From a virus (Duplodnaviria > Heunggongvirae > Uroviricota > Caudoviricetes), in the IMG/VR virus record IMGVR_UViG_3300032038_000031, positions 42,370 through 106,369 of that record: a DNA stretch of 64,000 bases. One strand, given 5' to 3'. The notes beneath the pieces are model-generated. The model was given only the letters and a program-made list of their open reading frames with translations, searched no databases and was not told the DNA's origin. Of this stretch, positions 1 to 64,000 are shown piece after piece (within the stretch, counting starts at the first letter, position 1; every line of letters starts with the position of its first letter). A program made the position numbers and the translations under genes.

Positions 1-2175
1 ACAGATAGTGGAATAAAAATTACTAGCGATAATCAAATATCTATAAATCTTGATAATCTTCAACTATTGAAGATCAAGCAATTAACAAATGTAGAGACTG
101 TTGTAGAGGATATTCTTCCTTATTATGAAGAAAATACTTTATATTATGGTGCTTGTCAAGGATTAATAAATAATGACAATTCCCCTATTATAAAATTAGA
201 AACTATTAGAACTAAAAGTTTTTTCATGTTTATAGAAAATACAGAGCGTTTTATTATTTTTTCAAGTGGGAGAATTTGGCGTTCTACTGTTAGGAAAGGT
301 TTCCCTGAGCAAGAAGTTTTTACTTTAATTCAAAACTCAATAGATAATGTATCTAGTTTTTCTTATTTTAATAATTTAAATGAATTTTTACAATTAACTA
401 AAAATGATAAAAAAACTTTTTCATATATATCTATAAAGAATGAAAAAAATATAGAAGATGGAGAATATTTATCTTTACCAATAGGAGAAACAACTAAAAT
501 ATTAATAAATGATTCTGGGGCAATGTATATTTCTCATTATATAAGTAATTTATGGGAAGAACCAAAAAAGATTGATCTTAATGCAGGTATATCCGCTTTA
601 GAAACTCAGCACAAAACAGATGTACAAGCACTAACTGACAAGGCTAATAGCATTGTCGATCAAGCTAACACAGATAGACAGAATTTTAATAACAGTATTG
701 ATGAAATCAACACAACTTTAGATACTAAAGAAAATGTATCTAATAAGGTAAGCGAGATTACATTTCCAAGCTTAAACTATTATCCTGACACAAAAGCAGT
801 TTTTGACTATGTTAATAGTAAGTTAGAAACACCTCTTGCTGCTATTGATAAGTGTGTTACAGATTTAGGCAAAGTGGCAAATATATCTGATAATTTATAT
901 CAATTTAATGATTATGGATTATATGCAGAAAGTGGTGCTGATCCAGACAATGCGACTGAATATTATTGGCATAGTATGCCTATACCTGTGAAAATTGGTG
1001 ATGTGTTGCGAACATCAAAACACGCATCGTGGCTCGCTGCATTTATAACAATGTACGACAGTAATAATAATCTTGTGAGTTTGGCAAAGGGTTCACTAAC
1101 TAACTATTATACAAATAGAGATAATGACGCTTATGATGAAATAACAATTAAAACTTTCACGTACAATGGTATAACATATATTGGTAAAGACTTTGAAGGT
1201 TATATAATTATCAGCTTTTCACAGGGAGATCTCGTCAAAGACCCTACCAAAAATGTAATTGTAAAAAATATAGCTTTTCCCGATAATTATGCAGAGTATG
1301 GGAAAGTTACACTTAATGAATCTATTCCTTTAACAGCTCAACAAAAGAAAGAATTATTACCTATTGAAAATAAGGTAATGGGTGTTAAATCAACTTTTAC
1401 TAAACCATTTGTTTGTATAAATTTTGACGATTTTTCATTTGATGATGATAGATTTAAGATTGTGCATGATGAATATGGTTTTCCAGCAACTGTCAGCATA
1501 ATTCCAAATTTTAATACTACTCAAAAAGATTATACAAATTATATCAAACTACTCGAATCTAATTGGGATGTTGGATTGTACCAATCAGCAGAATGGCCAC
1601 CGGATACTTACGGTGATGAAGCATATTCGGATAGTCCAACTCAAGAGGTTGTGTCTGCGTGGGAATCATATGTCTCAAAAACAGTTGAAAAAGCGAAAAT
1701 GTATGGTATATATCTTCCAATAACATGGTTGTGTCGCCAAATGCGTACATGTGTTGCTTTAGAGGAGGCTTGTAAAAAACATGGCATTAAATATATTCGT
1801 GGTGACGACATGAATAATTGGACAACTAGCTTATACTTCAAGCCATCTTTTAAGATGGCTGTTAAACCATCACAGTTATATCCTGACACAGTTGATACAG
1901 TTTTAGAAAACATTAATACTGCGGTGGAAAATGGATATGGTTGCACAGTATTTTCACACCGTTTATACGGGGATGAAAATACTGCAAAAAAGAATTATGG
2001 CTGTACAGTAGCAAATCTAAGAAAAGTACTTGATAAAATCAAAGATTTATATGATTCTGGCAAAATTGAGGTAATAACATTTTCCGATATGTATAGGAAG
2101 TATTTTCCGGACGAAATGGATAATATTGAAAAAAGAAGAAACGTTCTAGTAGCACTTGAAAGTAAGGTGAACTAA
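1..2175 (+). CDS. tail fibre / receptor-binding protein, 5' end cut by window edge; C-terminal CE4/NodB-like polysaccharide deacetylase domain
   Basis: ORF open from nt 1 in frame (no stop before listed TTG at 67); C-terminal 'INFDDFSFDDDRF...HDEYGFPATVSIIP' resembles NodB/CE4 motif 1 (TFDDG); position in structural module next to chaperone-like ORF. Confidence 0.5.
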   Translation, partial: TDSGIKITSDNQISINLDNLQLLKIKQLTNVETVVEDILPYYEENTLYYGACQGLINNDNSPIIKLETIRTKSFFMFIENTERFIIFSSGRIWRSTVRKGFPEQEVFTLIQNSIDNVSSFSYFNNLNEFLQLTKNDKKTFSYISIKNEKNIEDGEYLSLPIGETTKILINDSGAMYISHYISNLWEEPKKIDLNAGISALETQHKTDVQALTDKANSIVDQANTDRQNFNNSIDEINTTLDTKENVSNKVSEITFPSLNYYPDTKAVFDYVNSKLETPLAAIDKCVTDLGKVANISDNLYQFNDYGLYAESGADPDNATEYYWHSMPIPVKIGDVLRTSKHASWLAAFITMYDSNNNLVSLAKGSLTNYYTNRDNDAYDEITIKTFTYNGITYIGKDFEGYIIISFSQGDLVKDPTKNVIVKNIAFPDNYAEYGKVTLNESIPLTAQQKKELLPIENKVMGVKSTFTKPFVCINFDDFSFDDDRFKIVHDEYGFPATVSIIPNFNTTQKDYTNYIKLLESNWDVGLYQSAEWPPDTYGDEAYSDSPTQEVVSAWESYVSKTVEKAKMYGIYLPITWLCRQMRTCVALEEACKKHGIKYIRGDDMNNWTTSLYFKPSFKMAVKPSQLYPDTVDTVLENINTAVENGYGCTVFSHRLYGDENTAKKNYGCTVANLRKVLDKIKDLYDSGKIEVITFSDMYRKYFPDEMDNIEKRRNVLVALESKVN

Positions 2176-2300
2176 ATGTTTAATCTACACGATTTTGTGA
2201 TTAGAACTTTATCTACTATGAAAAACAGACTTGATGAATACCAAGTAAGAAGCTATGCTTTATCTTGGTATAGTAAGTCTGTTTTAACTGATGAAGATGC
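2150..2300. repeat. direct repeat copy A (~150 bp, ~85-90% identical to 3040..3190) spanning end of fibre gene + start of small ORF
   Basis: 'ga aagt(a/g)aggtgaactaaatgtttaatctacacgattttgtg(a/g)ttagaactttatctactatgaaa...' present twice. Confidence 0.8.
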
Positions 2301-2397
2301 GTTAATTACTAAAATTATTAATAGATTACCTAAATATGAGGGTGATATAGTAACTTTTGAAGATACTTTAGAGGAGATTGCAAATGACTCTTACTAA
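2176..2397 (+). CDS. small protein downstream of tail fibre (tail-fibre assembly/chaperone-like), paralog copy 1
   Basis: ATG overlaps fibre stop (TAAATG); 73 aa; N-terminal 45 aa ~90% identical to 3065..3271 product. Confidence 0.45.
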   Translation: MFNLHDFVIRTLSTMKNRLDEYQVRSYALSWYSKSVLTDEDALITKIINRLPKYEGDIVTFEDTLEEIANDSY

Positions 2398-2643
2398 TTT
2401 TAAGAATAAGCTAAAAGAATTAGCAAACTCTGTTCGCCGCAATAATTTAGTAATAGCAATTATAACTTTGACTTTATAATATAAATAATAACAAGACTAT
2501 AAATAAAGCAGAAATTTAAATTACAAAAAATTTTACTATAGATGTCTTAAATATAAAAATAAAAGATTATATAATAATTGAGAAGATAATATAACATTAT
2601 CAAATCTAGAATCTATAGTTATTTATTAAAAGGAGGTTTTATT

Positions 2644-2886
2644 ATGCAATTAAAAGAAGATAAAGGTTTAAGAATTTTAACTCCAGATAGTGAAGATAAT
2701 GTCATTACAGATATAGAAACTGAAACTATAAGATCAAAAATTGTTTATTTAGGAAAGAATGATTCTATTGATAACTATAAAGAAATAGATAAAAATACTC
2801 CTGTATCTTACAAAGATGATAAGACTACTAATGACGATCTTCTTTCTGATGAACAACTTCAACAGATTGCAGAGTTTTATAGTTAA
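2644..2886 (+). CDS. hypothetical protein
   Basis: strong RBS AAAGGAGG 7 nt upstream of ATG; acidic 80 aa product. Confidence 0.5.
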   Translation: MQLKEDKGLRILTPDSEDNVITDIETETIRSKIVYLGKNDSIDNYKEIDKNTPVSYKDDKTTNDDLLSDEQLQQIAEFYS

Positions 2887-2922
2887 TGGAAATTATTAAT
2901 GATGTAAATGGCTTATTTGAAT

Positions 2923-3064
2923 TTCAAGATCTAGGAGCAAGAACAGAATTAGTGCCGACACTGATTTTGAAGTAACTTATATTGCTGATACTAAAAACTA
3001 CATTGACAACAAGTTTAATGAGTTAGCAGCAGCCATTGTAGAACACGAAAGTGAGGTGAACTAA
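2923..3064 (+). pseudogene. start-less remnant of a tail-fibre gene C-terminus (~47 codons ending ...AAAIVEHESEVN*)
   Basis: frame opens after TGA, no start codon; ends with same '(E/K)(S)(E/K)VN*' + TAAATG junction as 67..2175; part of the duplicated module. Confidence 0.4.
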
Positions 3065-62905: not shown

Positions 62906-62999
62906 TTGTTTTTACGCTCCTTAAACATCTTTTTGCACATTCCAAGTATTGTTTCTTTTAATTCTAAATTTTCATTTTTAAGAAACTTTACTTCGGATG

Positions 63000-63284
63000 T
63001 CAACCTGTAATATTCTTCTTGATAATTAGGCATAACTTCGTTTTCACACGCTTCTTTACACATTTGTTTTTCATACTCCTTTGAGTTATTCGGATTTTTT
63101 GAACGACTTGATAACTTTTCATTGCTAAATCAAAATCAATCATTTTGATACATTCTTGTATAGTTTCATAAGACATTTTGTTAATTTCTTGCAAAGATTT
63201 TCCTTTTGCAATTCCAACAGGTAACACTTTACTATTCCTAATTACCATAAACAATGCTACTTGCATTTTTTCAAGTTCTGTCAT
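63000..63284 (-). CDS. hypothetical protein
   Basis: 94 aa basic C-terminus. Confidence 0.35.
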   Translation of the reverse strand: MTELEKMQVALFMVIRNSKVLPVGIAKGKSLQEINKMSYETIQECIKMIDFDLAMKSYQVVQKIRITQRSMKNKCVKKRVKTKLCLIIKKNITG

Positions 63285-63468
63285 TCCTTAACCGTCTATT
63301 AATCGTGTCTGTCAAGGTTATTCTTTCCTTAGTTGTGAATTTGTCGCAACAATTAAGTGCGTCAACGAAAGTTGAAAACCTTTTACACCTGACTTGCTTA
63401 AGGTAATTAGTCCTGTGTGGGTCGCAATGTTTACAAACTAAACACATATTCATTCCCATTTTGTTCAC
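63271..63468 (-). CDS. small Cys-rich protein
   Basis: CLVCKHC...CKRF..CC. Confidence 0.35.
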   Translation of the reverse strand: MNKMGMNMCLVCKHCDPHRTNYLKQVRCKRFSTFVDALNCCDKFTTKERITLTDTINRRLRNDRT

Positions 63469-63471
63469 TCC

Positions 63472-63678
63472 TTATCCATACAGAGAAGAAATTATCTTAT
63501 TATATATTTCTTCCTTTGTAATATCGCCACAAACAACTGTTGTTTCTGGATTGATAGCTTTATATAAGTCTGCTCTTGGCTTCAAAAGCTCATTTGCCAC
63601 GTTTATATCAATGCCTACGTTTTTGAAATTTGCTTCTCCACCGCAAAATGGACAAGGCTTTAATTCTTTTTCTCTCAT
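63472..63678 (-). CDS. small Zn-ribbon protein
   Basis: CPFCGGEANF...VVCGD. Confidence 0.35.
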   Translation of the reverse strand: MREKELKPCPFCGGEANFKNVGIDINVANELLKPRADLYKAINPETTVVCGDITKEEIYNKIISSLYG

Positions 63679-63681
63679 TGC

Positions 63682-64000
63682 TTATTCCTCCAATAATTCG
63701 GGATTGTCGTGTATATTGCCGATTACTTCAATATTTGATTTTGTACATTCATACAAGAAACCAAGTTCATTTGAAGATTTGCACCATACTATAAATGCGG
63801 AATGTTCAGGAAACCATTGCACAACAGCAGTTTCTTTTGTTTCTAAACTTTGAATTATATTCCCATCAAAAATCTTCTTGCCGTTCTTGTCGGTCAAGCC
63901 TGTGTACTGTCCGACGGTTGAGGGATTAATCAAGCAATGCTCACCTCGCTTACCAAAAATATAGTATTCGTCCGACGCAACCTCGGTTTTTGAAATGTGT
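63682..64000 (-). CDS. YopX-like phage protein, 5' end beyond window
   Basis: frame open to nt 64000 (..YYIFGKRGEHC..); GQYTGLTDKNGKKIFDGNII..W signature of YopX family. Confidence 0.5.
   Translation of the reverse strand, partial: HISKTEVASDEYYIFGKRGEHCLINPSTVGQYTGLTDKNGKKIFDGNIIQSLETKETAVVQWFPEHSAFIVWCKSSNELGFLYECTKSNIEVIGNIHDNPELLEE

Follow-up and report, generated by a model that had tools for sequence, protein, structure and literature searches.

Gene content and interruptions of the window

The window analyzed here is a stretch of 64,000 nucleotides (nt), positions 42,370 to 106,369 of the IMG/VR virus record IMGVR_UViG_3300032038_000031, and comes from an uncultured phage whose genome measures about 127 kb and includes an SPbeta/YorL-type replication module. 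The GC content of the window is 27%, no tRNA genes were found in the 64 kb, and between 6 kb and 63 kb nearly every gene is encoded on the minus strand. The large polymerase, an SPbeta YorL-type enzyme, shares about 40% identity with SPBc2 YorL and with the polymerases of Enterococcus phages and of the gut phage Phass-1. A megablast search against the INPHARED phages found no close relative of the window. IMG/VR holds many relatives with 60-71% identity in the dnaE product, on contigs of 100-165 kb.

Several replication and nucleotide-metabolism genes of the window are interrupted. Our reading, to which we assign a probability of about 0.85, is that these genes contain nine group I introns and two fractures by free-standing endonuclease genes. 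The nine introns, all on the minus strand, are found in dut (one), nrdD (three), dnaE (three), an AAA_24 ATPase gene (one) and gyrB (one). They sum to 10,640 nt, or 16.6% of the window, within a span of 40 kb, and the cassettes in nrdD and ligA account for a further 1,495 nt. The original prediction for this DNA, of many endonuclease-bearing group I introns in replication and nucleotide-metabolism genes on one strand, is supported in its core by the junctions, the P1 pairings, the core structures and comparative data, and the affected genes do all belong to these classes and to one strand. About ten introns had been proposed; nine are confirmed, and the tenth, the third interruption of nrdD, is a free-standing HNH cassette.

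Two of the split genes were mapped by tblastn with intact homologs (Phass-1 NrdD and SPBc2 YorL), which gave five coding blocks for nrdD and four for dnaE; dut, AAA_24 and gyrB each consist of two blocks. In dut, Pfam dUTPase positions 67-129 lie in a separate open reading frame (ORF) of 67 amino acids (aa). The intron-bearing loci are as follows.

7458..9165, minus strand: dut intron, 1708 nt, A-type; exons 9166-9429 and 7257-7457
8214-9074, minus strand: Vsr-like ORF of the dut intron; PHROG 559/9084/7140 at an expectation value (E) of 1.5e-26, weak Pfam DUF5889
7606..8091, minus strand: HNH ORF of the dut intron; Pfam HNH_3, NUMOD4, I-HmuI_NUMOD-like
10883..16791, minus strand: nrdD locus; exons 15847-16791, 14514-14639, 13791-14075 (end of the N piece), 12763-13251 (start of the C piece) and 10883-11551
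14640..15846, minus strand: nrdD intron a (nrdD-a), 1207 nt, A-type; LAGLIDADG ORF 14860-15693 (Pfam LAGLIDADG_3) in the P5 loop
14076..14513, minus strand: nrdD intron b (nrdD-b), 438 nt, B-type, without an intact ORF
11552..12762, minus strand: nrdD intron c (nrdD-c), 1211 nt, C-type with classical P, Q, R and S; GIY-YIG ORF 11592-12512 (Pfam) in P8
17495..25246, minus strand: dnaE (YorL-type) locus; exons 23339-25246, 21881-22085, 20154-20616 and 17495-18911
22086..23338, minus strand: dnaE intron 1 (dnaE-1), 1253 nt, B-type; GIY-YIG ORF 22216-23115 (Pfam)
20617..21880, minus strand: dnaE intron 2 (dnaE-2), 1264 nt; Vsr-like (phrog_559) ORF 20723-21676, PHROG 559 ("homing/intron-encoded nuclease") at E 1e-37
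18912..20153, minus strand: dnaE intron 3 (dnaE-3), 1242 nt, B-type; GIY-YIG ORF 19070-19990 (Pfam, E 1e-13)
33835..34920, minus strand: AAA_24 ATPase intron, 1086 nt, A-type; LAGLIDADG ORF 33952-34764 (Pfam LAGLIDADG_3, also Hom_end) in the P7.1 loop; exons 34921-35301 and 33178-33834
46250..47480, minus strand: gyrB (type IIA topoisomerase B subunit) intron, 1231 nt, B-type; GIY-YIG ORF 46375-47298 (Pfam); exons 47481-47846 and 44684-46249

Intron boundaries and spliced products

After exact removal of the introns, all nine spliced ORFs are open, in frame and free of gaps across the junctions when compared with uninterrupted homologs, dnaE-1 after a shift of 3 nt. The introns originally proposed for dnaE (three), dut, gyrB and AAA_24 (one each) are thus upheld. 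T is present at position -1 of the 5' exon and G at the end of the intron in all nine cases. P1 helices with a U.G wobble are found 8-16 nt into eight of the introns; they have 4-7 bp, with a short 3+2 bp helix in gyrB, and in dut the guide follows the first ORF (ORF1). Eight of the nine introns bear an endonuclease ORF, and the ORFs occupy peripheral loops (P1, P5, the P6-P7 region, P7.1 and P8). Outside the ORFs the introns comprise 273-438 nt, which contain the P/Q/R/S elements of group I.

The joined dut exons encode a dUTPase of 154 aa that aligns without gaps to 36 of 37 homologs. Its intron contains two unrelated endonuclease ORFs, the Vsr-like ORF in the P1 loop and the HNH ORF in the P7.1 loop. 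The P1 guide GCCGAC is situated at 8250-8245, about 900 nt downstream and at the end of the first ORF, and IMG/VR dut introns have the guide in the same place. The two halves of the ribozyme core (8253-8129 and 7561-7454) are both matched by an nhmmer profile made from contiguous IMG/VR introns, with E values of 5e-21 and 1.5e-25, and exactly flank the HNH ORF. In its last ~14 codons the Vsr-like ORF runs over the guide and over the 5' strands of P3 and P4, and its translation must therefore compete with folding of the ribozyme.

In nrdD, intron a has a P1 of 6 bp with U.G and a junction (SRSGN/QLPF, the slash marking the splice point) that is gap-free against homologs, and its 3' half (14812-14644) is matched by the nhmmer profile at E 3.7e-9. 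Intron b has a P1 of 7 bp. It probably holds the remnant of an endonuclease with a helix-turn-helix (HTH) at ~14225-14365, a region that was read by eye and that matches HTH_psq at E 3e-6. Intron c has a P1 of 7 bp and the junction GTLAVG/QLGLAE; its core elements, by reading, are AAUUGCGGGAA (P), GACGCAGC (Q), GUUCAACGACUAUAA (R) and GGUAUAGUC (S).

Spliced dnaE is an ORF of ~1330 aa with 60-71% identity to uninterrupted IMG/VR homologs. The 3' splice site of dnaE-1 was shifted and the intron made 3 nt shorter because 50 homologs read AAG/MTKYD, which is the corrected junction. For dnaE-2, which has a P1 of 7 bp, the junction LFQF/ES is gap-free in 56 of 57 high-scoring pairs (HSPs), and the 3' end of its Vsr-like ORF overlaps the R/P7.1/P7.2 part of the core. 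The junction of dnaE-3 (GYSFSI/IHALAY) is gap-free in 48 of 48 HSPs. The spliced AAA_24 protein, with the junction PYG/KGY, covers positions 2-195 of the 195 in Pfam AAA_24 (E 5e-38), and the halves of its intron that flank the LAGLIDADG ORF are matched by the nhmmer profile at E 9e-9 and 1.4e-24. The gyrB junction, GIG/SKIT, aligns without gaps to GVG/ASVV of ParE/GyrB structures.

Conserved structure of the intron cores

Each of the nine introns is matched by at least one model built from sequences outside the window: a covariance model (CM) or an nhmmer profile from IMG/VR, or Rfam. For the B-type introns, a search for the R...S core pattern retrieved more than 120 IMG/VR loci, and a model, CM R1, was built with RNAalifold only from 88 distinct IMG/VR segments and run over the whole window with filters off. 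It matches five window introns, gyrB (103.5 bits), dnaE-1 (85.3 bits), dnaE-3 (59.1 bits), nrdD-b (50.7 bits) and dnaE-2 (42.9 bits, at 20685-20768), a range of 43-104 bits; the next best match scores 14.9 bits. RNAalifold on the 88 segments gives P7, P7.1, P7.2 and P8, with compensatory changes in 15 of 22 pairs. The nhmmer profile for the A-type introns was made from 10 contiguous IMG/VR dut-type introns without the inner ORF, and it matches the dut, AAA_24 and nrdD-a introns.

Covariation of the A-type structure was tested in these ten IMG/VR introns together with the ORF-deleted dut and AAA_24 introns of the window, and nrdD-a is included by homology. The structure runs P3-P4-P5-P6-P6a-P7-P7.1-P8-P9-P9.1 and includes the P3/P7 pseudoknot. 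Pairing holds in 98% of its cells, and compensatory changes are seen in 31 of 51 pairs, among them pairs of P3. None of 500 shuffles matched this result, and controls in which the structure was slid along the alignment pair in only 27-44% of cells. P7.1/P7.2, the mark of subgroup IA, covaries strongly in the 88 IMG/VR sequences and is present in the five B-type window introns; P7.1 is also present, and covaries, in the A-type introns. The nine introns have a subgroup IA-like architecture; the assessment of P7.1/P7.2 covers the A-type and B-type introns, and the core of nrdD-c was assigned via the Rfam alignment. ORF-deleted introns have fold z scores of -2.1 to -4.9 and a GC content of 30-40%. 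When segments of only a few hundred bases were scanned, Rfam Intron_gpI gave partial matches in two introns of nrdD: 27.4 + 15.7 bits in nrdD-b, and 24.8 bits in nrdD-c by a 3'-truncated alignment through P4, P6 and R.

The proposed pathway is as follows. Once transcribed, the introns presumably fold with P1 placing a U.G pair at the 5' splice site, P3 and P7 forming a pseudoknot and P4-P6 a domain, together with P7.1/P7.2, P8, P9 and a terminal G, and then splice by two transesterifications initiated by guanosine. The nine introns are thus presumed to be self-splicing and guanosine-dependent, and the intact messages of dut, nrdD, dnaE, AAA_24 and gyrB would be regained. During co-infection, the endonucleases of the introns would presumably promote homing into alleles that lack an intron. 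Mobile DNA has heavily colonised the replication and nucleotide-metabolism genes of the phage.

Two genes probably fractured by free-standing endonuclease genes

The third interruption of nrdD and the interruption of ligA differ from the nine introns in their anatomy.

13226-13816 (ATG at 13789), minus strand: HNH ORF splitting nrdD (Pfam HNH_3), free-standing, not an intron
39144..42199, minus strand: fractured ligA locus, four overlapping ORFs (Pfam/PHROG)
40946-42199, minus strand: LigN, adenylation and OB domains (Pfam)
40260-40964, minus strand: EndoVII/HNH-like ORF in ligA; PHROG 1035/3118, endonuclease VII/HNH, E 2e-22, PHROG support only
39986-40276, minus strand: conserved 96-aa ORF in ligA, homologs at 72-78% identity
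39144-39989, minus strand: LigC, Zn finger, helix-hairpin-helix and BRCT domains (Pfam)

The third nrdD interruption is read from its sequence as a free-standing HNH gene that leaves two separately translated ORFs. The N piece contains Pfam NRDD positions 2-249 and the C piece positions 255-562. The nrdD frame stays open for 52 codons past ...NCD. Its stop occupies 13791-13793, with 1 nt separating it from the HNH ATG at 13789, which is itself preceded by GAGGAGGA. NrdD-C starts at ATG 13251, inside the 3' end of the HNH gene, with AGGAGGA ahead. The fracture leaves tails of ~40 and ~18 aa. At this site there is no non-coding room, there are no core motifs, and neither the CM nor the nhmmer profile finds a match. 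An identical nrdD/HNH arrangement is found in the related locus L019, where codon changes in the tail relative to the window number 7 synonymous and 5 non-synonymous, along with one in-frame codon indel; those in the HNH gene number 31 synonymous and 5 non-synonymous. Three other relatives (L010, L012 and L025) are uninterrupted here. The lack of non-coding room and of core motifs, together with the coding evolution of the tail, leaves nrdD with three of the four introns first proposed.

A different intron with a GIY-YIG gene was observed in nrdD of the IMG/VR loci L014 (15780-16640) and L015, at STMG/CRT. This is only a few codons from the HNH site of the window and L019, and this part of nrdD has accordingly undergone at least two kinds of invasion.

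ligA had been described as split by an HNH gene. An HNH-like ORF does lie between the halves, and the conserved 96-aa ORF lies there as well. The ORFs overlap, and no non-coding sequence is left. The region of the 96-aa ORF has a GC content of 26% and a fold z of +0.39, and CM R1 and nhmmer give no match at ligA. The same four-ORF arrangement occurs in L283, in which AAGGAGG+ATG gives LigC a start of its own; identity to the window is 75-81% for the cassette (75% at the aa level for the 96-aa ORF), as against 55-62% for LigN and LigC. The best 80 IMG/VR ligA loci from an alignment-based scan are all uninterrupted; an IMG/VR scan for ligA as a single protein found nothing. These features argue that ligA is fractured by the HNH-like gene and the 96-aa ORF and would not be spliced at the RNA level.

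Since both fractures have been kept in a second, diverged phage, they appear to be tolerated rather than dead. The conservation of the halves, and their arrangement in the second phage, suggest assembly of the enzymes from two pieces. The NrdD and Lig halves presumably assemble non-covalently, as does the NrdA of Aeromonas phage Aeh1, split by mobE. We see an even chance that NrdD is put together by two repair routes, with three introns spliced out and the halves joined via short acidic/basic tails derived from the HNH cassette, and that LigA is likewise a two-piece enzyme.

Endonuclease genes

The window contains 12 intact endonuclease genes: four GIY-YIG genes and one GIY-YIG fusion, two HNH, one EndoVII/HNH-like, two LAGLIDADG and two Vsr-like. 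Fourteen had been counted originally, with four HNH genes. The number is set at 12 because phmmer searches with all 12 against six-frame segments of at least 30 aa matched only one another and revealed no further paralog, and Pfam and PHROG recognize two HNH genes plus the EndoVII/HNH-like one. Pfam cut-offs are exceeded for GIY-YIG in five ORFs, for HNH_3 in two and for LAGLIDADG_3 in two, in agreement with the earlier counts of four GIY-YIG genes (five with the fusion) and two LAGLIDADG genes.

The two genes earlier called Zn-ribbon/PD-(D/E)xK-like correspond to the two Vsr-like ORFs, a probable assignment made through PHROG 559/9084/7140 only. PHROG 559 carries a VSR endonuclease domain (PMC11878797). 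A sequence search of the PDB with the Vsr-like ORF gave no match. The Zn-ribbon N-terminus of the Vsr-like ORF in dut (8214-9074) was also seen to resemble the HNH-like ORF of ligA (40260-40964; phmmer E 2e-10), and a DNA-binding module appears to be common to endonucleases with different catalytic domains.

One GIY-YIG gene is free-standing.

37524-38495, minus strand: GIY-YIG fusion, inside no gene; Pfam GIY-YIG at residues 228-310

This is the gene first described as a membrane-anchored GIY-YIG fusion, and the description agrees with the position of the domain and with a hydrophobic helix at the N-terminus (MLMKIVCIILIIVSLWLIFYALF), read from the sequence. The middle part is long and coiled-coil-like, and only the C-terminus matches a PHROG homing endonuclease. 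The fusion also stands next to ligA in L283 and L284.

Promoter-like sequences were observed in two nrdD introns. A perfect sigma-70-type site (TTGACA-17-TG-TATAAT) is found at 15746 to 15718 on the minus strand, just upstream of the LAGLIDADG ORF of nrdD-a, and a site matching at 11 of 12 positions is found at 12531-12559 on the minus strand, upstream of the GIY-YIG ORF of nrdD-c. Intron endonuclease genes may be transcribed on their own. Overall, promoter-like sites in the window are not enriched over shuffles.

Distribution in related phages

dnaE, nrdD, dut and AAA_24 are uninterrupted in most relatives. Introns at the same site with homologous endonucleases occur in L050, L056 and L057 for dnaE-1 and in L036 and L057 for dnaE-3. 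The same-site introns of L050, L057 and L056 have 94-97% nt identity to dnaE-1, and the GIY-YIG ORF of the L056 intron is degenerate or broken. In dnaE-3, P1 shows a compensatory change of exon and guide relative to L036 (AGCAU/GUGCU versus AGCGU/GCGCU).

L057 (IMGVR_UViG_3300010347_000503, 10001-24754) has five interruptions in dnaE and at least four in nrdD. Its introns are far more conserved than its exons: nt identity to the window is 92% for nrdD-a, 94-97% for dnaE-1 and 88% for a same-site nrdD-c without an ORF, whereas the exons are only 58-74% identical at the protein level. Identities of 88-97% in the introns beside 58-74% in the exon products point to a recent horizontal spread of introns between diverged phages. 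When CM R1 was run on loci of 60 relatives, it found 37 cores, all on the gene strand; 37 of the 60 loci had none, and L057 had the most (five).

One further core-like sequence was observed in a public record. Positions 3001-3101 of the locus from the cultured Enterococcus phage VRE9_3 (PP680569.1; L063) are 80% identical to the B-type core and adjoin a gene annotated as "homing endonuclease" and several very small "hypothetical proteins". An intron missing from the annotation of that record is the probable explanation.

Alternative explanations

Several observations count against the nine introns and two fractures. No intron reaches the gathering score (50 bits) of Rfam RF00028 Intron_gpI, and a scan of the whole window with this model gave no match at the gathering score or at E<=10. 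Scans of small regions with the Rfam model were also negative for the 3' part of nrdD-a, the 5' part of the AAA_24 intron and the 5' part of the gyrB intron. One coding control has a fold z of -3.07, so this measure discriminates weakly and is supportive only. In the B-type introns the 5' domains (P2-P6) were assigned by eye, and the covariation test covers the P7-P8 half only, because MAFFT misaligned the 5' halves of whole ORF-deleted introns. As P1 of the dut intron spans a loop of ~900 nt and an ORF lies over core helices, the efficiency of splicing is uncertain there. A hypothetical splice of ligA, ...KDEN/IMQYIYF..., gives a linker of typical length. Splicing of the nine introns is a prediction from DNA sequence.

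The null result of the whole-window Rfam scan is attributed to the ORFs that sit in the ribozyme loops; with ORF-bearing phage introns, covariance models often find only one side (PMC11878797). A scan of the 5.9-kb nrdD region likewise gave no Intron_gpI match, the partial matches being lost because the filters tighten with sequence length. The Infernal scan with Intron_gpI that had been suggested as a check would therefore, with zero matches in the window even at E<=10, wrongly dismiss the introns if taken at face value. Simple searches for the R and S motifs in the window were not above chance.

All eleven interruptions, including the third in nrdD and that in ligA, might be group I introns with intron-encoded HNH ORFs. 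The HNH gene in nrdD belongs to the same family as the intron-encoded HNH of dut (phmmer E 1e-14), and the linker from the hypothetical ligA splice would agree with this explanation. However, the nrdD site has no room for non-coding sequence, with a stop 1 nt before the HNH ATG and AGGAGGA+ATG inside the HNH 3' end, and its tail evolves as coding sequence, to judge by the synonymous and non-synonymous changes and the in-frame indel described above. The ligA interruption is filled by two overlapping ORFs, one of which, the 96-aa ORF, is well conserved in L283 ahead of a LigC with its own AAGGAGG+ATG. Neither site is matched by CM R1 or nhmmer, and the GC content and positive fold z of the 96-aa region contrast with the 30-40% GC and z of -2.1 or below of the nine introns. 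We consider an intron in ligA unlikely, and introns at all eleven sites distinctly improbable.

The opposite explanation is that the interruptions are plain insertions of free-standing endonuclease genes, or decay, without any RNA splicing, and that the host genes are pseudogenes or encode multi-piece proteins. Two genes of the window are truly fractured in that way, and Rfam finds no group I intron at the gathering score. Against this, internal exons are as short as 42 and 68 codons and no start codon or ribosome-binding site is seen at their 5' ends; at each junction a U occupies -1, the intron ends in G and P1 can pair; the structured cores are conserved and covary; relatives have ORF-less versions of the elements at the same sites; and the exons are still conserved without frameshifts. 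We regard this explanation as very improbable. Phages are also reported to have replication and ribonucleotide reductase (RNR) genes interrupted by group II introns and inteins (PMC7886860, PMC2677866), but the intervening frames here have stops and shift the frame, Pfam finds no Hint/intein domain in the ORFs and pieces scanned, a reverse-transcriptase ORF is absent, and the non-ORF parts of 273-438 nt contain group I P/Q/R/S. An origin of this kind is already refuted by these features. Split inteins at the fractures were also considered and rejected: Pfam finds no Hint/intein family in NrdD-N, NrdD-C, LigN or LigC, and the tails are too short.

Neighboring genes and other observations

Phass-1 (OQ749652.1; L002), which is among the nearest annotated relatives, uses genetic code 15 with TAG reassigned, and its suppressor tRNAs adjoin an uninterrupted nrdD; no sign of recoding is seen in the window. 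An alternative genetic code, an idea taken from this relative, was rejected for the window, in which TGA and TAA are ordinary stops.

A calcineurin-like phosphoesterase gene at 51075-51613 (minus strand) has an in-frame TGA at ~51578-51580 (MQIWFTSDLHL, stop, LCHDK...). The Pfam Metallophos match spans this TGA, and TGA is the normal stop in 11 of 75 window ORFs. The gene could be a pseudogene or have a read-through site, or the TGA could be a sequencing error. Nearby, at 51620-51843 on the minus strand, there is a stop-to-stop frame of 74 codons with an HTH-like motif, ISEWCKIYNIKQATVNARIRNG, but without a start codon or a Pfam match. Situated between kinase-like and phosphatase genes, this frame may be a remnant of an endonuclease DNA-binding domain. 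A tenth intron was sought in the 322-nt gap 51522-51843 and rejected, the gap instead containing the start of the phosphatase gene with its in-frame TGA and the HTH-like remnant.

On the plus strand, in a possibly structural region, two near-duplicate small ORFs (2176-2397 and 3065-3271) both start with MFNLHDFV(I/V)RTLSTMK..., and are followed by a large leucine-rich-repeat (BspA-like) protein at 4212-5756 (plus strand).

Comparison with known systems

T4 has three introns and SPO1 one, and for Twort three introns are documented in orf142 and two in nrdE. The density of the window was originally predicted to exceed that of the classic cases, and it does so for T4 and SPO1.

The window introns resemble the IA introns of Firmicute and T4-type phages (T4 td/nrdB/nrdD, Twort orf142/nrdE, SPO1/Bastille DNA polymerase, Bastillevirinae; PMC11878797, PMC3984707) in their targets, namely DNA polymerase, RNR and nucleotide metabolism. 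In both, P1 contains U.G, the intron ends in G, P7.1/P7.2 is present and the ORFs lie in peripheral loops, and the endonucleases are of the same families: GIY-YIG, HNH with NUMOD, LAGLIDADG and PHROG 559/Vsr-like. On the other hand, the window is denser per gene and per kb, with three introns in nrdD, three in dnaE and nine in 40 kb, whereas the most intron-rich Bastillevirinae genome has six (PMC11878797). Its dut intron bears two different endonuclease ORFs, and dut, the AAA_24 ATPase and the topoisomerase B subunit are targets unlike the four target gene families of Bastillevirinae (PMC11878797). The phage itself belongs to an uncultured lineage with an SPbeta/YorL polymerase.

Zeta crAss-like phages have up to 14 introns and three inteins per genome (PMC7886860). 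They are similar to the window in that these, too, are metagenomic genomes in which group I infestation breaks ORF-based annotation, single genes there being in five fragments. In contrast to the window phage, they belong to an unrelated order with Bacteroidetes hosts, and their introns lie largely in structural genes, PolB and primase and are accompanied by inteins and stop-codon reassignment; neither inteins nor recoding was seen in the window. Because the Zeta crAss-like phages reach 14 introns, and L057 has at least nine interruptions in dnaE and nrdD together, the density of the window is not unprecedented. The window is an extreme case of a known phenomenon.

The fracture of nrdD is like that of Aeh1 nrdA by mobE (PMC3045599), in which a free-standing HNH gene lies inside the gene for the RNR large subunit and the two ORFs have unique tails. 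In Aeh1, these insertion-derived tails are essential for assembly of the active enzyme (PMC3045599). The Aeh1 enzyme is a class Ia NrdA, whereas that of the window is predicted from its sequence to be a class III anaerobic glycyl-radical NrdD; moreover, nrdD of the window has three group I introns, and an NAD+-dependent ligase is fractured too. Both fractures also recall the "fractured genes" associated with split inteins (PMC2677866), in which a replication or RNR gene is present as two ORFs with an endonuclease gene between them. Unlike these, the window has no intein halves; the tails are only ~40 and 18 aa and, by reading, lack the N-terminal Cys/Ser and C-terminal HN+Cys/Ser/Thr motifs.

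Biological implications

Programs that call ORFs would report some 25 fragments or "hypothetical proteins" for five normal and two fractured genes, and the standard remedy, Rfam Intron_gpI at its gathering score, yields nothing for the window. For metagenomic phages of this type, the models must derive from relatives without the ORFs, or the ORFs must be deleted before the sequence is scanned. In the window and L057, intron cores of 88-97% nt identity move between phages whose exons have ~60-70% protein identity, which offers a natural system for the spread of introns and endonucleases, and the ORF-less, intact and decayed versions at the same site allow the gain and loss of endonucleases to be studied. 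This lineage can show how large a load of selfish DNA is tolerable to an essential replication module. With its two fractured genes, the genome supplies new cases in which to test whether genes broken by mobile endonucleases are rescued at the protein level. If the two-piece assembly is correct, neither a class III RNR nor a LigA would, to our knowledge, have been described before as a "gene in pieces", and the tail-assembly mechanism of Aeh1 NrdA would be extended to unrelated enzymes.

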